Below, one piece after another: positions 1 through 56,342 of a stretch of 64,000 bases of DNA. The notes below the pieces were generated by a model that worked only from the letters and a program-made list of their open reading frames with translations, did not search any database and was not told the origin of the DNA. Positions within the stretch are counted from its first letter, which is position 1; every line of letters starts with the position of its first letter. Location: IMG/VR virus record IMGVR_UViG_3300023179_000012; one strand, 5' to 3'. The translations under genes were made by a program, and so were the position numbers. This DNA comes from a virus.

Positions 1-278
1 ATTCCTTACCATTAATCTTAACATACCAAGTAAAATCCCTCTGGTAAACCCGTACCGGGCTATACTGGTTAATCCTATCCTTAGTGGTAACAGTTTGCCA
101 ACCCCCACTATTAAGGGTATAGGTGCCATCATCCCGAATCTTTACAACGTATGTACTGTGCAACTTAATAGCCACAGTATTATCGCTCAGGATTTCCGCA
201 TAGGTATTATTACCAATCTTTCGGCTATCCTTATTCCGCTTGCCACGAACCATCTTAATCGCTTCGGCGTGTGTCATT
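1..278 (-). CDS. Hypothetical phage protein, truncated by the left window edge (not in ORF track)
   Basis: ATG at 278 preceded by AAGGAG and a sigma70-like promoter; reads MTHAEAIKMVRGKRNKDSRKIGNNTY...GGWQTVTTKDRINQY... with no stop before position 1. Confidence 0.7.
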
Positions 279-306
279 TTCTTTTCTCCTTACTTCTATT
301 ATCGGT

Positions 307-335
307 ATTTTACAGGCTAAACTTGAGAAAGTCAA
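307..335 (-). promoter_or_regulatory. sigma70-like promoter
   Basis: TTGACT-17 bp-TAAAAT on the minus strand, followed by a purine-rich leader with AAGGAG and the ATG at 278. Confidence 0.7.
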
Positions 336-378
336 GAAAATAATCCTGTGCCAAATGCGAATATTTTTTAGAATGTCC

Positions 379-456
379 TAAGTCCTTATGGGGCAAGTAC
401 TTACGCAAAAATCGCCACGGCCCCCGCGTCATAAGTCTTTACGCGGAAAGGCTTTA
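379..456. repeat. Paired 25-bp palindrome element, copy 1
   Basis: TAAGTCCTT-ATGGGGC-AAGTACTTA (379-403), 28-bp spacer, TAAGTCTTT-ACGCGGA-AAGGCTTTA (432-456). Confidence 0.9.
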
Positions 457-458
457 TG

Positions 459-740
459 TCAACTGTTCAACTGTTCAGCCATAACTTTACCCGGCTTGAA
501 TCGCACCACACGCCGCTGTCCGATCATCACGGCTTCGCCCGTGCGAGGATTGCGGGCCTTGCGAGGTGCGGTCACCTTTACGGTGAACACCCCGAAGTTT
601 CGCAGTTCGATGCGTCCAGTTTCGACCAGCGTTGCTATCATATTGTCCAGAGTAGCCTGCACGATCTCGCGTGCCTGCTGACCCGTAACGCCAACCCGCT
701 CCGCAACCTGTTCGACCATACCACGCTTCGTTCCGATCAT
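459..740 (-). CDS. IHF/HU-family DNA-bending protein
   Basis: 93 aa with GRIELRNFGVF, PRKARNPRTGE and VRFKPGK, the signature motifs of the HU/IHF family; SD GGAG upstream. Confidence 0.95.
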   Translation of the reverse strand: MIGTKRGMVEQVAERVGVTGQQAREIVQATLDNMIATLVETGRIELRNFGVFTVKVTAPRKARNPRTGEAVMIGQRRVVRFKPGKVMAEQLNS

Positions 741-766
741 TTCACTTTCTCCGTTGTGATGTTTCT

Positions 767-794
767 ATTCTACAGCCACTATTCTAAAAATCAA
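767..794 (-). promoter_or_regulatory. sigma70-like promoter of the IHF/HU gene
   Basis: TTGATT-16 bp-TAGAAT; the -35 box overlaps the stop codon of the upstream gene. Confidence 0.55.
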
Positions 795-967
795 GAGCAA
801 AAATCTGCTGGCTCGGGATACATTTCTTCCCACAACCCAGTCACTTCGGCATAATCAAACGGGTCGCAATCAACCTCGTCGATAGGTTCGACCATAGGCT
901 CGATCATACCATCGTCAGCGAGTTGAGAGAGGATAGCGTTGATGGTATCGGTGTCATCGAGGATCAT
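791..967 (-). CDS. Small highly acidic protein, 58 aa (below ORF-track cutoff)
   Basis: MILDDTDTINAILSQLADDGMIEPMVEPIDEVDCDPFDYAEVTGLWEEMYPEPADFCS; SD GGAG and its own promoter at 996-1023. Confidence 0.7.
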   Translation of the reverse strand: MILDDTDTINAILSQLADDGMIEPMVEPIDEVDCDPFDYAEVTGLWEEMYPEPADFCS

Positions 968-995
968 ATCGTTTCTCCGTTGGGGTGATGCGATG

Positions 996-1023
996 ATTCT
1001 ACAGTTATTATCGACAAATGCAA
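996..1023 (-). promoter_or_regulatory. sigma70-like promoter
   Basis: TTGCAT-16 bp-TAGAAT upstream of the ATG at 967. Confidence 0.55.
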
Positions 1024-1098
1024 GCCCACACCTTGAGAATAATCCTATGCCAAACTAAAAATATTTTCTGACACGGTATTTTCTTGGATCATTTTCTC

Positions 1099-1176
1099 TA
1101 AGTGCTTGTGCAGAAAGGACTTAGGAAAAATCCGGCCCGGCGTCCTCGCCGTAAGTCTTTACGGATCAAGGACTTG
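1099..1176. repeat. Paired 25-bp palindrome element, copy 2
   Basis: TAAGTGCTT-GTGCAGA-AAGGACTTA (1099-1123) and TAAGTCTTT-ACGGATC-AAGGACTTG (1152-1176); 53-bp period. Confidence 0.9.
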
Positions 1177-1259
1177 CGTCATTATTTAGATAACACGCAA
1201 TAACATAGGCCAACATAACTAATAATAAATGTAAGTGCAGCAAGCATTATAATATTCCT

Positions 1260-1448
1260 TTATTTGGCGTGAATAAATACGTTTTTACTAGCGGTCTGAT
1301 TTGTTACAGTCACAATCCAGTTTTTTCCGCTACCATCTTCCCGAAGAATACCGTTGATGATACCAACGTGTACATTACCCTTGGGATCAGTAACAGTGCC
1401 ATACTTTCCAGACCGCATAGCACTCATAATCTTATCAAGACTATTCAT
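1260..1448 (-). CDS. Hypothetical protein, 62 aa
   Basis: Co-oriented with neighbours, starts 15 nt after the upstream stop, natural composition with beta-strand pattern. Confidence 0.65.
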   Translation of the reverse strand: MNSLDKIMSAMRSGKYGTVTDPKGNVHVGIINGILREDGSGKNWIVTVTNQTASKNVFIHAK

Positions 1449-1462
1449 TATACTATAACCTT

Positions 1463-1663
1463 TCAGTTAGCGTTAGCAGGCTCAAAAATATCCAGAACAT
1501 TACACTTGTCAACATAGATTGAACGATATCCATGCTCACACTTGACGGTGAGAAGAATACGCTCTCCAAACTGACGCACCCTAGTCACAACGCCGTCAAC
1601 AACCTCTCCGTTGTTATACTCGGCATGAACAGCATAACCAGCCATGGGAACCTTACTCGTCAT
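1463..1663 (-). CDS. Hypothetical protein, 66 aa (SH3/Sm-like beta pattern possible)
   Basis: Purine-rich leader and promoter at 1696-1723; co-oriented with the array. Confidence 0.7.
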   Translation of the reverse strand: MTSKVPMAGYAVHAEYNNGEVVDGVVTRVRQFGERILLTVKCEHGYRSIYVDKCNVLDIFEPANAN

Positions 1664-1695
1664 TCTACCCTTTCTTTCTCTCTTCTATTATCGAC

Positions 1696-1723
1696 ATTAT
1701 ACAGGCGATTCTTTAGGTTGCAA
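1696..1723 (-). promoter_or_regulatory. sigma70-like promoter
   Basis: TTGCAA-16 bp-TATAAT followed by the shared leader GTCGATAATAGAAG. Confidence 0.65.
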
Positions 1724-1786
1724 GCAAAATCTTTGGATTTTTGTGTCAAGATTTTTTGACAAAACTTTTCTGTTTTTCGGTATGGT

Positions 1787-1803
1787 TTGGCATACCGTTT
1801 GCT
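1787..1803 (+). promoter_or_regulatory. sigma54-like -24/-12 motif
   Basis: TTGGCATACCGTTTGCT, GG-N10-GC spacing; starts 31 bp before palindrome copy 3. Confidence 0.55.
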
Positions 1804-1817
1804 GATGCGATTTTCCC

Positions 1818-1895
1818 TAAGTCGTTACGCTGTAAGTACTTACGTCAAATTCGCTGCGCCCATATCGTCGTAAGTCCTTACGCCGTATGGGTTTG
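1818..1895. repeat. Paired 25-bp palindrome element, copy 3
   Basis: TAAGTCGTT-ACGCTGT-AAGTACTTA (1818-1842) and TAAGTCCTT-ACGCCGT-ATGGGTTTG (1871-1895); 53-bp period. Confidence 0.9.
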
Positions 1896-1897
1896 CG

Positions 1898-2083
1898 TCA
1901 ACTCTGTCCCGGATAGATTCTTCCGCTCTTGAGTCGCTGTACAAGCGTATCGTAATCGTCAGTCGTGAACAGCGTATAATAAGCATCCCGCTCCTGCACG
2001 ATCCACTTGCGAGTGTATCCGTTCCACACACTAGCCACGACCACACCGAGAGAGTTAGCCAGAGATACGATTTCAGCATTCAT
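1898..2083 (-). CDS. Hypothetical protein, 61 aa (start moved from 2104 to 2083)
   Basis: MNAEIVSLANSLGVVVASVWNGYTRKW...; the ATG lies 2 nt after the upstream TGA, consistent with translational coupling. Confidence 0.65.
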   Translation of the reverse strand: MNAEIVSLANSLGVVVASVWNGYTRKWIVQERDAYYTLFTTDDYDTLVQRLKSGRIYPGQS

Positions 2084-2085
2084 TT

Positions 2086-2301
2086 TCAAGATACTCCCAT
2101 CCAAGATGCTTTTTCCACACAGTAATCATAGAATATATCGTTCAAAACTTCAAGATGGTTTTTTTCGGTCAAACGACGACGAGCAAGGATAGCATCGCAC
2201 TCTGCGAAAAACTTACCCGTGGACACTTCATATACAATCGTACACGCATACGATTCGCTTCCCCAAATCCTAGCCTTAACATCAACGAACTTCTTCAACA
2301 T
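2086..2301 (-). CDS. Hypothetical protein, 71 aa
   Basis: SD GAGGAG, promoter at 2335-2363, shared leader. Confidence 0.7.
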   Translation of the reverse strand: MLKKFVDVKARIWGSESYACTIVYEVSTGKFFAECDAILARRRLTEKNHLEVLNDIFYDYCVEKASWMGVS

Positions 2302-2334
2302 CTGTTTTCTCCTCTTCTCTCTTCTATTATCGAC

Positions 2335-2363
2335 ATTCTATCAGACTTTCTTCAACATTTCAA
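2335..2363 (-). promoter_or_regulatory. sigma70-like promoter with extended -10
   Basis: TTGAAA-17 bp-(TGA)TAGAAT followed by the leader GTCGATAATAGAAG. Confidence 0.7.
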
Positions 2364-2387
2364 GAGGGCAAAAAAGATTTTTGTAGC

Positions 2388-2404
2388 AGCAAATATCGTG
2401 CCAA
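2388..2404 (-). promoter_or_regulatory. sigma54-like -24/-12 motif
   Basis: Minus strand reads TTGGCACGATATTTGCT, a near-perfect match to the established YTGGCACGRNNNTTGCW consensus. Confidence 0.6.
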
Positions 2405-2407
2405 TCA

Positions 2408-2485
2408 TAAGTCGTTGTCTGATAAGCACTTAGGCACAAGTCGTGCCGCCGAGTTCGACGCAAGTCCTTACGCCACAAGGATTTA
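2408..2485. repeat. Paired 25-bp palindrome element, copy 4
   Basis: TAAGTCGTT-GTCTGAT-AAGCACTTA (2408-2432) and CAAGTCCTT-ACGCCAC-AAGGATTTA (2461-2485); 53-bp period. Confidence 0.9.
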
Positions 2486-2540
2486 CGTCGAATTGTTGTA
2501 CAGTAGTGTACAGGCTTATATCCCCATAATAGGGGGCTTA

Positions 2541-2864
2541 TTACCCCTCCCACCCAAAGGGGGATACTTCCTCACCGCAAGCCTGAATAGCGGCATACTG
2601 TTCGATTAGAGCCTCTACACGTTCACGCGATCCAGGTTTGCCAACCTTCACGATCATGGTATCCTCACCACCAACCATGCGAGAATCTACCTTCTCGCTC
2701 TTGCTCTTGCCGATATTCTTCAATGCGGTGCGATTGAACTTCAGCACCTTTTCGCTGCGAATCGTTCCACCATCTGCGTTAGTTTTGTCGCAAGGGATAG
2801 CGATACCAACGAAGCACATACGGGCAACTCGCTCAGCATCACGAACAATCTTAGGCTTTTTCAT
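2541..2864 (-). CDS. Hypothetical basic protein, 107 aa
   Basis: SD AAGGAG, tandem stop codons, co-oriented with the array. Confidence 0.7.
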   Translation of the reverse strand: MKKPKIVRDAERVARMCFVGIAIPCDKTNADGGTIRSEKVLKFNRTALKNIGKSKSEKVDSRMVGGEDTMIVKVGKPGSRERVEALIEQYAAIQACGEEVSPFGWEG

Positions 2865-2924
2865 TTTCTTTCTTTCTCCTTTGGATGATGGATCGTACTA
2901 AACTTTTCCCTGTGACGCAACCCC

Positions 2925-3173
2925 TCAAATGAGGGACGCTTCGCGCTCCTTGCGAAACTTGATGGCGTACAGTTCGTCCACAACAACGCGAACCACGGTA
3001 TCCATGCTGACACTCTTGTGGGTATAGTATCCACAATGGATAGCGAACAGGCTATACGTACCGGGAACACCGGATGGTATCGACCCCACACTGTGGGGGT
3101 GAAGGGTAAAACCCGCATTGTAAGCGTAACGGCGAATACTCTTGCGAATCGTTTCAATTTTTGGGATTCTCAT
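2925..3173 (-). CDS. Hypothetical protein, 82 aa (start moved from 3263 to 3173)
   Basis: MRIPKIETIRKSIRRYAY...; a promoter (3199-3226) and GA-rich leader lie inside the longer track ORF. Confidence 0.65.
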   Translation of the reverse strand: MRIPKIETIRKSIRRYAYNAGFTLHPHSVGSIPSGVPGTYSLFAIHCGYYTHKSVSMDTVVRVVVDELYAIKFRKEREASLI

Positions 3174-3198
3174 CTCTATCTCTCTTTCTCTTTCCAGT

Positions 3199-3226
3199 AT
3201 TATACCAAACTTTTTCGACAGCACAA
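3199..3226 (-). promoter_or_regulatory. sigma70-like promoter with extended -10
   Basis: TTGTGC-16 bp-(TGG)TATAAT. Confidence 0.55.
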
Positions 3227-3241
3227 CCCCCACAACGGGGG

Positions 3242-3418
3242 TCACCATCCGTTTCTCCGACACTCATCGGCCCAATCCCGATCCTCTTGACGGGTACGAT
3301 CATTATACCCGTATCCACCATAGGTAAGGTAGTTATCCTTCATGGCATCGTATCCATCATCCGAATCGTGAACATCGTCAAAATCTTCGTAATCGTACAG
3401 GGGGTCAGGGCAACTCAT
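3242..3418 (-). CDS. Small acidic, Tyr-rich protein, 58 aa (below ORF-track cutoff)
   Basis: MSCPDPLYDYEDFDDVHDSDDGYDAMKDNYLTYGGYGYNDRTRQEDRDWADECRRNGW; GA-rich leader, with a sigma54-like motif 31 nt upstream. Confidence 0.65.
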   Translation of the reverse strand: MSCPDPLYDYEDFDDVHDSDDGYDAMKDNYLTYGGYGYNDRTRQEDRDWADECRRNGW

Positions 3419-3449
3419 TTTTCACTCTCTCTTTCTTACCTCTATATAG

Positions 3450-3466
3450 TGCATGTTCTGTGCCAA
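3450..3466 (-). promoter_or_regulatory. sigma54-like -24/-12 motif upstream of the 3418 start
   Basis: TTGGCACAGAACATGCA, GG-N10-GC; the predicted +1 near 3439 leaves a ~20-nt leader. Confidence 0.45.
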
Positions 3467-3571
3467 AAGTCGAAAAATATTTTTGTGCGACTTTCTCGAC
3501 GATTTCCGCAGGCTGTCACCTTGGCACTATGTCATATTGGCAAAGTCTGCCATTTTTGGCTGCCGTATTGT

Positions 3572-3588
3572 TTGGCACGATATCTGCT
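3572..3588 (+). promoter_or_regulatory. sigma54-like -24/-12 motif
   Basis: TTGGCACGATATCTGCT; starts 31 bp before palindrome copy 5. Confidence 0.55.
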
Positions 3589-3602
3589 GTGGTCATTTGA
3601 TC

Positions 3603-3680
3603 TAAGTCGTTATGCCACAAGTACTTACGTCGAATCCGCGGCCGCGAATTTTTCGTAAGTCCTTACGCCGTAAGGGTTTG
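3603..3680. repeat. Paired 25-bp palindrome element, copy 5
   Basis: TAAGTCGTT-ATGCCAC-AAGTACTTA (3603-3627) and TAAGTCCTT-ACGCCGT-AAGGGTTTG (3656-3680); 53-bp period. Confidence 0.9.
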
Positions 3681-3807
3681 CATCAAGTCGTTGTACAGTA
3701 GTGTACAGGCGTACACCCCACTACAGTGGGGATGCACAAGCGTACACTGAGCCGAATGGTACGTTATGCTGATTAGCATATACTGAACGAGCATCCGCCC
3801 AATCCTT

Positions 3808-3824
3808 AGCAAGTACCATGCCAA
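3808..3824 (-). promoter_or_regulatory. sigma54-like -24/-12 motif
   Basis: Minus strand reads TTGGCATGGTACTTGCT; no ORF follows directly. Confidence 0.55.
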
Positions 3825-3869
3825 GGTAGAAATCATTTTCCGAATTGTAGATATAGTAGGTTTTCATGA

Positions 3870-4019
3870 TTAGGAGATCAGTTCCATATCCTCATTGTAG
3901 CACTCGTACTCATCTCCGTCAATCTCTACGTGCCACACATCACCCTCATCGAAATGCCAGCGAATGATTCGACCAATCTTTCCGTCAACCTTCACCTTAT
4001 CACCAAGAGCAAACTGCAT
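3870..4019 (-). CDS. Small protein, 49 aa, SH3-like beta pattern (below ORF-track cutoff)
   Basis: MQFALGDKVKVDGKIGRIIRWHFDEGDVWHVEIDGDEYECYNEDMELIS; SD AAGGAG, extended -10 TGATAGAAT (-10 at 4048-4053), leader nearly identical to that of the 278 gene. Confidence 0.7.
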   Translation of the reverse strand: MQFALGDKVKVDGKIGRIIRWHFDEGDVWHVEIDGDEYECYNEDMELIS

Positions 4020-4081
4020 TTTCTTTCTCCTTACTTCTTATATCGGTATTCTATCAAATATTTTTTAGATTATCTACCCCC

Positions 4082-4306
4082 TTATCGGGGGATCGTAATC
4101 AGATCACCAAAATGTGAGAACGTCAACTTGAGAACCCTATTCGGATATTTCTCATCGATATACTTCTGTGCAGTGCTTTTCCGATTATCGGTAGCACTCA
4201 CACCCTGTACAACTGTACCGTTCTCATCAATCACCTTCCAAACCTTCTTTTGAACGATACGCGGAAGGCTTTGGATGAAATCGTTGATATGAGTAACCTT
4301 TTCCAT
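4082..4306 (-). CDS. Hypothetical protein, 74 aa (start moved from 4507 to 4306)
   Basis: MEKVTHINDFIQSLPRIV...; the promoter at 4350-4377 and a GA-rich leader lie inside the longer track ORF. Confidence 0.65.
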   Translation of the reverse strand: MEKVTHINDFIQSLPRIVQKKVWKVIDENGTVVQGVSATDNRKSTAQKYIDEKYPNRVLKLTFSHFGDLITIPR

Positions 4307-4349
4307 TTTTCTTTCTCTCTTTCTTTCTTCTCTTTTCTCTTGTGCTTTC

Positions 4350-4377
4350 ATTATACAGTATATATCGGCCATTGCAA
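4350..4377 (-). promoter_or_regulatory. sigma70-like promoter
   Basis: TTGCAA-16 bp-TATAAT. Confidence 0.65.
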
Positions 4378-4431
4378 GCGAAATCTTTTGAAAAAATAAA
4401 AAATAATTCTGTGCCAAATCAAAAAAACTTT

Positions 4432-4448
4432 TTGGTATACCGTTTGCT
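4432..4448 (+). promoter_or_regulatory. sigma54-like -24/-12 motif
   Basis: TTGGTATACCGTTTGCT, one mismatch from the 1787 copy; starts 31 bp before palindrome copy 6. Confidence 0.5.
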
Positions 4449-4462
4449 CTCTCGATTTCTTC

Positions 4463-4540
4463 TAAACCCTTATACCACAAGCACTTACACGCTCTTCGGC
4501 GTGACAAACAAGACGTAAGTCCTTATAATATCAGCACTTA
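4463..4540. repeat. Paired 25-bp palindrome element, copy 6
   Basis: TAAACCCTT-ATACCAC-AAGCACTTA (4463-4487) and TAAGTCCTT-ATAATAT-CAGCACTTA (4516-4540); 53-bp period. Confidence 0.9.
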
Positions 4541-4669
4541 GAGAGAGGGGGTTTTTCTGTTTCTTCTCCAGTCTCAAAACCTCTGACCCTAAACCCGCGG
4601 TGGTCCAAACATAGTAAGCAAACCATATATAATTGGCCAGTTTAATGACAAGTTTCCCCATTATTAAAT

Positions 4670-4710
4670 AAAAAAACAGGCACCAATTATGAGTTGATGC
4701 CCGTTTCTTT
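4670..4710 (-). terminator. Intrinsic terminator after the 4733-4957 gene
   Basis: Minus strand AAACGGGCATCAA-CTCATAA-TTGGTGCCTGTTT followed by a T-run. Confidence 0.75.
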
Positions 4711-54824: not shown

Positions 54825-56342
54825 ATGAGTAGTAGATTTGATAGTATTATATTAGCTGGTAGATCTCTTAGACCAGCCCCATTTGTTAGTACTACTTATG
54901 AATATGTAAGATATAATAATTATGTAATTGGTGGACTTTTAATTGTCACATTGTCTGGTACTATTGTTGATGAAAATATTATGAGTAAAATTGAAGAGCT
55001 TAATAATCTTCAATATGATGAAAATTGTGCTTCTTTGACAATAGGATGTGCCGACACTGGGGGCAAAGATTTCTTAGATGGTTCTGGCAGAATTAGATCT
55101 ATAGATATTAATCAGAACGACCAACCATTCGTAGCATCATATACTATAGTAGTAGCAATAGAGACAATTAACGGTCAACCAGTGGTCCAACCAGATCCTG
55201 AATTTGCTAAATCTATCAATATACCACCAGAAGCTATTCCTAAGTTTCTTACCTCATATTCTGAAAGTATTACTATTGATGGTTCAGCAGATTTATTATG
55301 TGCTAATGATCAAGGAATGGGAATTTCTAAAGGATATATTAAAGCTAATGGTAGTATAGAGTTAGGTGTTAATAGTAATTTTATATGTGGATACCCTTCT
55401 TATGATCCTATGCCAGTAATAAATAATTTTTTACTATTAAGATCAGCATCAATTATTAACGGATATGGAGACGGCAATCCTCTAATTAATTATAGACTTT
55501 GGAACAAGTTTTTAGATACTAAAAGTTTAGAGATTAAAACAAATGGTAATGTATCATGGCAATTTACAGCATATGTAAAAGAAACTTCCGGCGGAACACC
55601 TTCTGCCTTAGTAACAGTTAACACAACAGATAATCTTGATCAAAAGACTAAAAAAAGAACTAGATCTATTTCTGGTAATATTAAAGGATTATCTTTAGCT
55701 ACAATTGGTGATCATATTGGTCATAAAGCTAATACTAATGAAAGAATTGGTAATGCTCAAAGTGCTTTTGATGCTTTGGATAGAGCCTTTTTACATAAAG
55801 GAGTGTGGCCCGGAGGAGAATATGTTACTCTTACTGCTCCTAAATGTCCTCCGGATCCAAATACTTGCGATACTCAATTTATTCCTCCTATTTGTTATCA
55901 GAGAAACTCTCACACAATCACAAAATCTATGGTTGCTGGAGAAATTACATTTGATATGGATTTTTCAGATATTGATGCTTGTAAATCTAAAGAATATGAA
56001 TTAGAAATTACCATAGATGATACTTTTCCGGCTCATAGATACCAAGAAATTATTATTCCCAATAGGGCTGTTAAAGGTTATCAAGCCTTTCCAAGATCTA
56101 TCATACAAAGAACAGGCGTCACATCTCAAAGCGTTAGAATAACTGTAAGAGCTTCATTAATTGGGTGTGATGCAAAAAAAATGGAAAAAATCATAGAATG
56201 TGCAAAAAATAAATTAAATTTTATCATAGCATCTCAATATAGTTCAATTAATGGATGGATTTATAAATCTCAAACCGTTAACAAAGGCACGTATTCGATT
56301 ACTATAACTCATGAACGTATTAGGTGTAACTATTATGCATAA
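54825..56342 (+). CDS. Tail tip/baseplate protein, paralogue B
   Basis: RIRSIDINQ, ISGNIKGL, CPP...C and LEITIDD are collinear with 53316. Confidence 0.5.
   Translation: MSSRFDSIILAGRSLRPAPFVSTTYEYVRYNNYVIGGLLIVTLSGTIVDENIMSKIEELNNLQYDENCASLTIGCADTGGKDFLDGSGRIRSIDINQNDQPFVASYTIVVAIETINGQPVVQPDPEFAKSINIPPEAIPKFLTSYSESITIDGSADLLCANDQGMGISKGYIKANGSIELGVNSNFICGYPSYDPMPVINNFLLLRSASIINGYGDGNPLINYRLWNKFLDTKSLEIKTNGNVSWQFTAYVKETSGGTPSALVTVNTTDNLDQKTKKRTRSISGNIKGLSLATIGDHIGHKANTNERIGNAQSAFDALDRAFLHKGVWPGGEYVTLTAPKCPPDPNTCDTQFIPPICYQRNSHTITKSMVAGEITFDMDFSDIDACKSKEYELEITIDDTFPAHRYQEIIIPNRAVKGYQAFPRSIIQRTGVTSQSVRITVRASLIGCDAKKMEKIIECAKNKLNFIIASQYSSINGWIYKSQTVNKGTYSITITHERIRCNYYA

Follow-up and report, generated by a model that had tools for sequence, protein, structure and literature searches.

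What do doubly palindromic elements do between the genes of a phage when they recur many times with an unvarying internal spacing? The question is raised by the IMG/VR virus record IMGVR_UViG_3300023179_000012, of which a stretch of 64,000 nucleotides (the window) was analyzed. Positions 1–4540 of the window, with 44–46% G+C, contain the terminal part of an array of small genes transcribed leftward (minus strand), and an initial annotation, made from the letters alone, described six such elements there and read them either as a phased nucleoprotein switch that controls the early gene cassettes through a phage-encoded integration host factor (IHF) or as recombination sites. The general idea of a DNA–protein device serving the early cassettes is the part of that annotation our analyses best support; neither the phage IHF nor an Int-type recombinase is supported as its protein. 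The explanation we favor, with somewhat better than even confidence, is that the elements are paired operators for a swappable DNA-binding specificity factor that acts on early transcription.

The six elements of the window, each with a 78-bp core made of two 25-bp quasi-palindromes whose starts are exactly 53 bp apart, were recovered by pattern, weight-matrix and profile scans at the positions first described (Table 1). The degenerate pattern TAAGTNNTT-N7-AAGNACTTA, with up to 3 mismatches allowed, matches the window 28 times as compared to 7.8 ± 3.6 times in shuffled sequence; its matches include 11 of the 12 palindromes (the twelfth, at 1871, exceeds the mismatch limit), and the clear ones are all inside 379–4540. 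A weight matrix built on single palindromes recovers all 12 as six pairs at exactly 53 bp, and in the whole 64 kb it gives only one additional, weak hit at 55505, so that apart from this hit the elements are confined to the array. The same six elements, and no others, were returned when the window was searched with an nhmmer profile. The minus-strand genes, their near-consensus promoters and an HU/IHF-family gene at 459–740 are likewise as the initial annotation described them. Its account of the repeat unit needs extension: the 25-bp palindromes are real, but the true unit is larger, since each arm is ~6 bp longer (TTGACG / CGTCAA). The orientation of an element, which is set by sequence asymmetry alone, places all six copies on the gene-sense strand.

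Relatives of this phage carry the element in large numbers. When IMG/VR was searched for exact matches to the two inner arms at their observed spacing, at least 118 loci were identified, many of them multi-copy; a profile derived from these loci detected ~570 elements, of which 505 are unique, in about 1 Mb. We assessed the spacing independently by scanning for single palindromes and counting neighboring pairs less than 120 bp apart. Exactly 53 bp separates the members of 523 of the 537 pairs in this ~1 Mb of loci, and only ~174 of the 53-bp pairs had been picked by the search pattern itself. Clear matches are limited to one region per record in five relatives that were scanned whole (genomes of up to 238 kb), and each of four relatives that were mapped has a single array of 12–21 elements over 14–21 kb. 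All copies within an array face the same way, except that in two arrays one or two copies at an end are flipped; of 542 contexts across the relatives, 451 have both flanking genes running in the direction given by the sequence-derived polarity.

Within the element, the general half-site is (T)TGaCG-TAAGTCCTT, which at 15 bp is longer than was originally seen. Each element has four half-sites in the order forward, reverse, forward, reverse (i.e. head-to-head twice), and the two extended palindromes are separated by a 14-bp GC-rich gap with the core GGSSSSCC. Conservation is concentrated in the arms and their flanks and is higher in the inner than in the outer half-sites; the 7-bp centers of the palindromes are nearly free to vary (~0.03–0.5 bits across positions 10–16, mostly <0.2).

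Dyad symmetry at two levels, a position right after stop codons and, in some copies, a GC-rich center flanked by A and T runs are features that might be expected of a folded single strand of RNA or DNA, be it an intrinsic or bidirectional terminator, a stabilizer of mRNA 3′ ends, a hairpin promoter of the N4 type, or a substrate like attC or the repetitive extragenic palindrome (REP). Pairing in the elements, however, is at the level of chance. Watson–Crick frequency equals the column-composition expectation in all three pairing schemes; among 138 diverse elements, paired cells amount to 67.9% when the element is folded as two separate hairpins (67.6 ± 0.3 in shuffles) and 66.2% when it is folded as one long nested hairpin (66.6 ± 0.4 in shuffles), and covariation scores for both schemes are at the shuffled mean. 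About one third of the cells are unpaired, with, for example, A or C facing C or A in mid-arm. The element matches no family in Rfam, the region has no excess of terminator-like sites, which combine a GC-rich stem with a U tract (6 as compared to 3.6 ± 2.6 in shuffles), and just one element center qualifies as terminator-like on the sense strand. The likeness to attC sites and to REP, BIME (bacterial interspersed mosaic element) and REPIN sequences lies in imperfect palindromes at the ends of genes or cassettes and in two inverted units around a variable center. Those elements are folded single strands with conserved pairing and variable length that need an integrase or a RAYT (REP-associated tyrosine) transposase, whereas in the elements studied here pairing is not conserved, length is invariant (in the 523 of 537 pairs), and neither an integrase nor a RAYT-type transposase (PF01797) was found in the relatives searched. 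The idea of an N4-style hairpin promoter was dropped because a 5274-aa open reading frame (ORF) of the window, considered as a crAss/N4-type virion RNA polymerase and rejected, is a tape measure protein. We thus regard a folded strand as highly improbable. Conserved arms, free loops and an absence of compensatory change instead argue that the element is duplex DNA read by a protein and not a hairpin.

The most informative result is the replacement of the element, in the same slots, by a second type. The closest relatives by backbone, in which a 272-aa protein is 90% identical and the DNA 79–80% identical from window position 4587 on (47 bp past element 6), have no element of the kind described so far, hereafter type A. 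The second type, type B, consists of CTGCCATTTTGGCAG, 14 GC-rich bp and again CTGCCATTTTGGCAG, with a period of exactly 29 bp in 39 of 46 pairs; genome G006, a complete type-B genome of 159 kb, contains 14 copies in one orientation over 13.5 kb. When G006 is compared with the type-A contig 3300042905_004368, orthologous array genes are 70–97% identical and in the same order, and at matching junctions there are type-B elements in the former and type-A elements in the latter. Elements of both types adjoin the upstream stop codon and both keep the 14-bp GC-rich gap, indicating that what is conserved is the edge-to-edge gap and not the center-to-center phase. The two types seldom mix: at least three type-A elements and no type B are found in 114 loci, and the reverse holds for 17. 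On trees of backbone genes the element type is scattered nearly at random; in the tree of the 272-aa protein there are 7 changes for 8 type-B tips, as compared to a shuffled mean of 7.4. By analogy with stoperator motifs and their repressors (PMC6550527), such scatter looks like the behavior of a set of cis sites tied to a swappable trans factor, and adaptation to differing host factors would fit it as well. No additional element type emerged when untyped loci were searched for perfect palindromes.

The position of the elements relative to genes and promoters is equally regular. For the upstream gene, the most frequent end point of the stop codon is 2–3 nt ahead of element position 1, because the TGA lies within the TTGACG flank, and the next start codon is found ~80–110 nt downstream of the element. 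Between the two there is an A/T-rich stretch and then a near-consensus σ70-type promoter. The scan for such promoters found 26, mostly on the minus strand, as compared to 10.1 ± 3.5 in shuffles. Among 483 elements, 299 have a downstream promoter that scores at least 10.5 of 12.5, and the highest score class is reached by 165 elements as compared to 1 in shuffles. The gap between element and −35 peaks at 20, 30–31, 41–42, 53 and 64 bp in these 483 elements; the peaks at 20, 30–31 and 41–42 bp persist after collapse to 106 sequence clusters, for which the Rayleigh z is 14–16 at periods of 10.5–12 bp. These data support the part of the initial annotation in which elements with a fixed geometry on the scale of a protein sit upstream of early promoters; successive preferred gaps differ by roughly one turn of the helix. 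Where an element seemed to lie between convergent genes, the genes had in nearly all instances been called wrongly, and there is a promoter downstream, often for a tRNA.

The same arrangement would be expected if the bound protein marked a unit boundary, i.e. if it acted as a polar roadblock to read-through from upstream, like the stoperators of Cluster A mycobacteriophages, and not on the downstream promoter. The elements adjoin the upstream stop (whose TGA is often part of the TTGACG flank), have a single orientation with respect to transcription, and are intergenic and present in many copies per genome, traits that match the published description of stoperators (PMC6550527). In those phages, too, tens of copies per genome are mostly intergenic and predominantly in one orientation, and the motif differs between related phages, as do types A and B here. 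Stoperators (those of L5 and Bxb1, for example) are nevertheless single asymmetric 13–14-bp sites that are bound by a monomeric repressor and are distributed across the whole genome of temperate phages (PMC6550527, PMC9283540), whereas here the site is a symmetric pair of 78–90 bp with fixed geometry, limited to the early region, and neither a repressor nor an integrase was found. Moreover, some units of the window already end in CCCC-loop-GGGG hairpins ahead of the element, and the existence of preferred distances to the next −35 suggests that the element is coupled to the promoter downstream of it. We consider a roadblock unlikely.

Could the protein be a member of the HU/IHF family, as the initial annotation supposed? 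An architectural protein of this kind, either the phage HU or the host IHF, would bind the array and wrap the early region into a phased nucleoprotein switch. An HU-family gene is present inside the array, the best-conserved arm positions read TAA-N4-TTR, which is loosely like CAA-N4-TTR, and a period of 53 bp amounts to approximately five turns of the helix. HU-family proteins with sequence preference exist, and TF1 of phage SPO1 is a precedent for such binding. The parallel with SPO1 TF1 and with IHF sites extends to a phage HU-family gene among early genes and to the idea of marking early promoters; unlike there, the HU gene here is not conserved together with the element. With tblastn no homolog of it was detected in 118 of the element-bearing loci, and there was no hit in genomes G001, G004, G005 and G006, which are rated 95–100% complete and three of which have full type-A arrays. 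The half-site also fits poorly. In its logo, TAA is preceded by C (84%) and G/C, and T (86%) stands in place of the C of IHF; >80% of half-sites have C, G/C and T at the positions equivalent to the A, T and C of WATCAA, and when set against the IHF consensus WATCAANNNNTTR nearly all copies mismatch at these three positions. The GC-rich center is unlike IHF sites, and type-B sites have no IHF likeness. The near-IHF arm that had been singled out does exist (1164–1176); it is idiosyncratic, the sole arm that comes close, and does not represent the general half-site. The HU/IHF gene is therefore an accessory cassette gene and not the conserved partner of the element, and an IHF/HU-type switch is very unlikely.

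The other initial reading, in which the elements are core sites for a site-specific recombinase that excises or inverts cassettes, has in its favor the inverted 9-bp arms around a 7-bp spacer, as in core sites of the λ Int family, and the location of the elements at cassette boundaries. In four relatives rated 95–100% complete, however, searches gave no hit for tyrosine recombinases (PF00589), serine recombinases (PF00239) or Y1 transposases (PF01797), although control genomes were positive for each family (14 of 14 for PF00589). Furthermore, the 7-bp spacers, which tyrosine recombinases need to be common to the copies, differ between them, and all copies are direct repeats at fixed slots conserved between phages. 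Site-specific recombination is thus improbable in the extreme.

The content and order of genes between elements do differ in relatives, as the initial annotation had suggested they might, and the differences are bounded by elements. From the 107-aa to the 92-aa gene there are three element-bounded units in the window that the nearest type-A relative lacks, and the cassettes of the 58-aa and 92-aa genes are in reversed order in the window relative to both contig 3300042905_004368 and G006. The elements could therefore be passive boundaries, intergenic repeats at which homologous exchange shuffles, inserts or deletes early cassettes. A precedent is provided by the promoter early stem-loops (PeSLs) of T4-like phages, which combine an early promoter with a terminator hairpin and are thought to act through homologous recombination (PMC2839356, PMC4122927). 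As in the PeSL regions, the array here consists of small, variable early genes with their own early promoters and a repeated intergenic motif, and its cassette content varies. Unlike a PeSL, the element is separate from the promoter and has no conserved hairpin, its half-site conservation is typical of protein recognition, and its two types occupy the same slots yet share no homology. Homologous exchange would also be expected to homogenize whole elements, whereas only the arms and the GC core are conserved, with loops and spacer flanks free, and it would require neither the strict 53-bp geometry nor the half-site logic. A passive role of this kind fits the cassette differences and fails to explain the geometry and half-sites; as a full account of the elements it appears distinctly unlikely.

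How might paired operators work? In the mechanism we propose, each element would be a pair of double-stranded operators, with the four 15-bp half-sites TTGaCG-TAAGTCCTT arranged around the invariant 14-bp GC-rich gap, and a sequence-specific dimeric protein would bind it as two dimers or as one tetramer. Some 12–21 such sites in one orientation are distributed through the early-gene array, each after the stop of one unit and before the promoter of the next; because the sites are placed ahead of the promoter of each unit, a single factor could control the whole early region together. The output would be timed shut-off or immunity-like silencing of the early promoters or, alternatively, activation, in which the factor would contact RNA polymerase from a single helical face. 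Repression of the shut-off or immunity-like kind is the most likely of these, because the promoters look intrinsically strong and because the site type behaves like a swappable specificity.

Several observations weigh against the operator interpretation. The cognate binder was not found among the array genes or the adjacent regulator-like genes: those beside the array, which encode an 86-aa protein, a sigma-like protein of 216 aa and the 272-aa protein, are closely matched in phages of both types and therefore cannot set specificity, and no gene family of the arrays is both shared by all type-A phages and missing from type B. DUF932, tried as a type-linked factor, was rejected, since copies that are 94–95% identical to the one in G006 adjoin type-A elements. 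The center-to-center distance corresponds to integral helical turns for type A (53 bp) and not for type B (29 bp). The periodicity of the gaps is dominated by one peak at 30–31 bp and in part reflects shared ancestry; the gaps in the window, at 44 to ~130 bp, are longer than the preferred ones; and the proximal site edge lies 20–90 bp upstream of the −35, which is unusual for a simple repressor. Finally, the mutual exclusion of the two types is not absolute, because there is one true mosaic array, L355, with one type-B and then two type-A elements within 4 kb, and because solitary palindromes of the opposite type occur in both kinds of phage.

Other searches for the factor can be summarized briefly. 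Families that all four type-A arrays share and that G006 lacks were set aside, as they have no DNA-binding annotation and none occurs in the close type-A contig. None of the trees of 14 families separates the types, except for families with only 2–3 type-B tips, and searches of solved structures with the 272-aa, sigma-like and 86-aa proteins returned nothing useful. Either the phage or its host could encode the factor. In bacterial genomes, multi-copy arrays are found only on short contigs of metagenome-assembled genomes (MAGs) labeled as three different phyla. These contigs are probably mis-binned phage, and they therefore give no clue to the host.

Paired palindromic operators bound by dimers of dimers are familiar from the C proteins of restriction-modification systems and from phage φ29, where p4 sites lie upstream of the promoters A2b, A2c and A3. 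The elements resemble these in having two inverted-repeat sites at a fixed distance that are placed relative to promoters, an arrangement that can both repress and activate; they differ in number, there being one or few sites per genome in those systems, for which the binding protein is known. An array of regulatory sites in many copies is a known kind of phage feature. What is unusual is the invariant geometry, the GC-rich gap common to both types and the concerted replacement by a second type. A bolder proposal, which we offer as rather doubtful, is that two interchangeable operators with a 14-bp gap constitute a previously undescribed phage control system, in which one swappable factor would gate every early unit, and in which factor and sites (types A, B and perhaps more) would co-diversify as a result of phages within one family silencing the early genes of their co-infecting relatives, amounting to immunity-like exclusion without an integrase.

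Table 1 Positions of the elements and other features discussed in the text (window coordinates unless a locus or genome is named)
Feature	Coordinates	Strand	Remarks
Element 1	379..456	minus	78-bp core, palindromes start at 379/432; extended half-site flanks reach ~373-462; HU gene stop codon within its TTGACA flank; canonical orientation is the gene-sense strand
Element 2	1099..1176	minus	Palindromes start at 1099/1152
Element 3	1818..1895	minus	Palindromes start at 1818/1871; TGA stop of upstream gene (1898-1900) within its TTGACG flank
Element 4	2408..2485	minus	Palindromes start at 2408/2461
Element 5	3603..3680	minus	Palindromes start at 3603/3656; center is CGCGGCCGCG
Element 6	4463..4540	minus	Palindromes start at 4463/4516; first of the array in the direction of transcription; weakest match
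σ70-type promoter after element 1	307..335	minus	TTGACT-17-TAAAAT
σ70-type promoter after element 3	1696..1723	minus	TTGCAA-16-TATAAT
σ70-type promoter after element 4	2335..2363	minus	TTGAAA-17-TAGAAT
σ70-type promoter after element 6	4350..4377	minus	TTGCAA-16-TATAAT
σ54-like motif TGGCAT-N5-TTGC	1788..1802	plus (antisense)	15 nt before element 3
Solitary type-B-like palindrome CTGTCACCTTGGCAC	3513..3527	plus	Between element 5 and the next promoter
HU/IHF-family gene, 93 aa	459..740	minus	PF00216, E = 6e-28
Protein of 1385 aa	15620-19777		Mostly collagen triple-helix repeats
Tape measure protein, 5274 aa	34651-50475		PF10145 match
Type-B paired palindrome arrays	L128:1-9000; G006:C1:137500-151000		
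Mosaic array L355	Elements at 270-313, 2316-2409, 4077-4175		Only clear mixture among ~290 loci

We note a number of other features in and around the arrays. In the type-A phages L349 (at 4279) and L371 (at 4208) a single type-B palindrome, CTGCCATTGTGGCAG, overlaps the −35 of a promoter whose −10 is TATAAT, which is the classic position of an operator. GCCGATA, the −10 consensus of σ28/FliA, is found within or just past the spacer of most of the σ70-type early promoters (e.g. at 296–303), and in the promoters of the window and of many relatives it is followed by a conserved 5′ leader, CGATAATAGAAG. Motifs of the σ54 type lie on the plus strand of the window, at 3573–3587 and 4433–4447 in addition to the one in Table 1, and TGGCAY-N5-YTGC adjoins 72 of 483 elements on the antisense strand (2 hits in the shuffled control). 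The last base of the motif is 8–10 or 13–15 nt before the element, so that its direction is into the element and the upstream gene, and at locus L025 all six sampled elements have it. A search of the phages for a bacterial enhancer-binding protein, for which the element might serve as an upstream activating site of σ54 promoters, found none, the single hit being a generic AAA+ match with E = 0.0095.

Short hairpins of the CCCC-loop-GGGG form that have no U tract follow stop codons on the minus strand of the window at 4082–4097, 3727–3743, 3232–3250, 2926–2940 and 2528–2546, and some genes have both such a hairpin and an element 3′ of the stop. The conserved motif CCTGTACACTACTGTACAAC is present at 2497–2520 and 3692–3715, in the sense direction immediately before elements 4 and 5, respectively; it holds a perfect TGTA-N8-TACA, the form of an NtcA box, and is rare in relatives (6 of 483). 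A hydrophobic mini-ORF of 21 codons (MLAALTFIISYVGLCYCVLSK) lies at 1182–1246 on the minus strand, between the gene at 1260–1448 and element 2, and a resembling ORF occurs in three type-A arrays. The DUF932 protein (316 aa, 75–100% identity across 80 contigs) is encoded within arrays with an element on each side (L100:5522–6472 and orthologs). In a 4.3-Mb gammaproteobacterial MAG, G011 (contig CAVUSA010000003.1 and others; L331, L333 and L335 are listed with it), there are ~19 dispersed copies of TAAGTCCTTAT-N4-CCGGAATTTAC in a ~190-bp repeat. This repeat also has AAAGGACTTA 28 nt upstream, matching the inner arms, spacing and TTTACGTC flank of the phage element, a likeness that may reflect either a shared binding factor or chance.

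Beyond the array, in the remainder of the 64-kb window, transcription is rightward and G+C is 29–45%, mostly ~34%; the fall from ~45% in the array to ~34% is steep and occurs at 4540–4600, which is where homology to the type-B sisters also starts. The genes of the rightward part encode the sigma-like protein, the 272-aa protein, an HNH protein, an ERCC4 nuclease, the large terminase and the portal protein, as well as a collagen-repeat protein and the tape measure protein, the length of which implies an extremely long tail. From this gene content it follows that the phage is large and very long-tailed. Among GenBank phages there is no DNA match to window positions 1–4700 and no protein match to a 506-aa ORF, and the nearest large terminase, that of Microcystis phage MaeS, is only 25.6% identical; the family is thus one that has no close cultured relative. 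A literature search with the motif strings returned nothing relevant. The 272-aa gene adjacent to the array is present in at least 416 IMG/VR contigs.

For this phage family, which is abundant in metagenomes and uncultivated, the element offers a sharply defined and testable handle on how a 14–21-kb block of small early genes is coordinated. The combination of rigid geometry, strict placement between units and complete replacement by a second type suggests a specificity system whose evolution resembles that of immunity regions; here it would belong to a large phage in none of whose searched relatives an integrase was found. Identification of the binding factor would give access to early-gene control and to competition between phages in an uncultivated lineage, and would provide a compact pair of orthogonal operator sets for synthetic biology.

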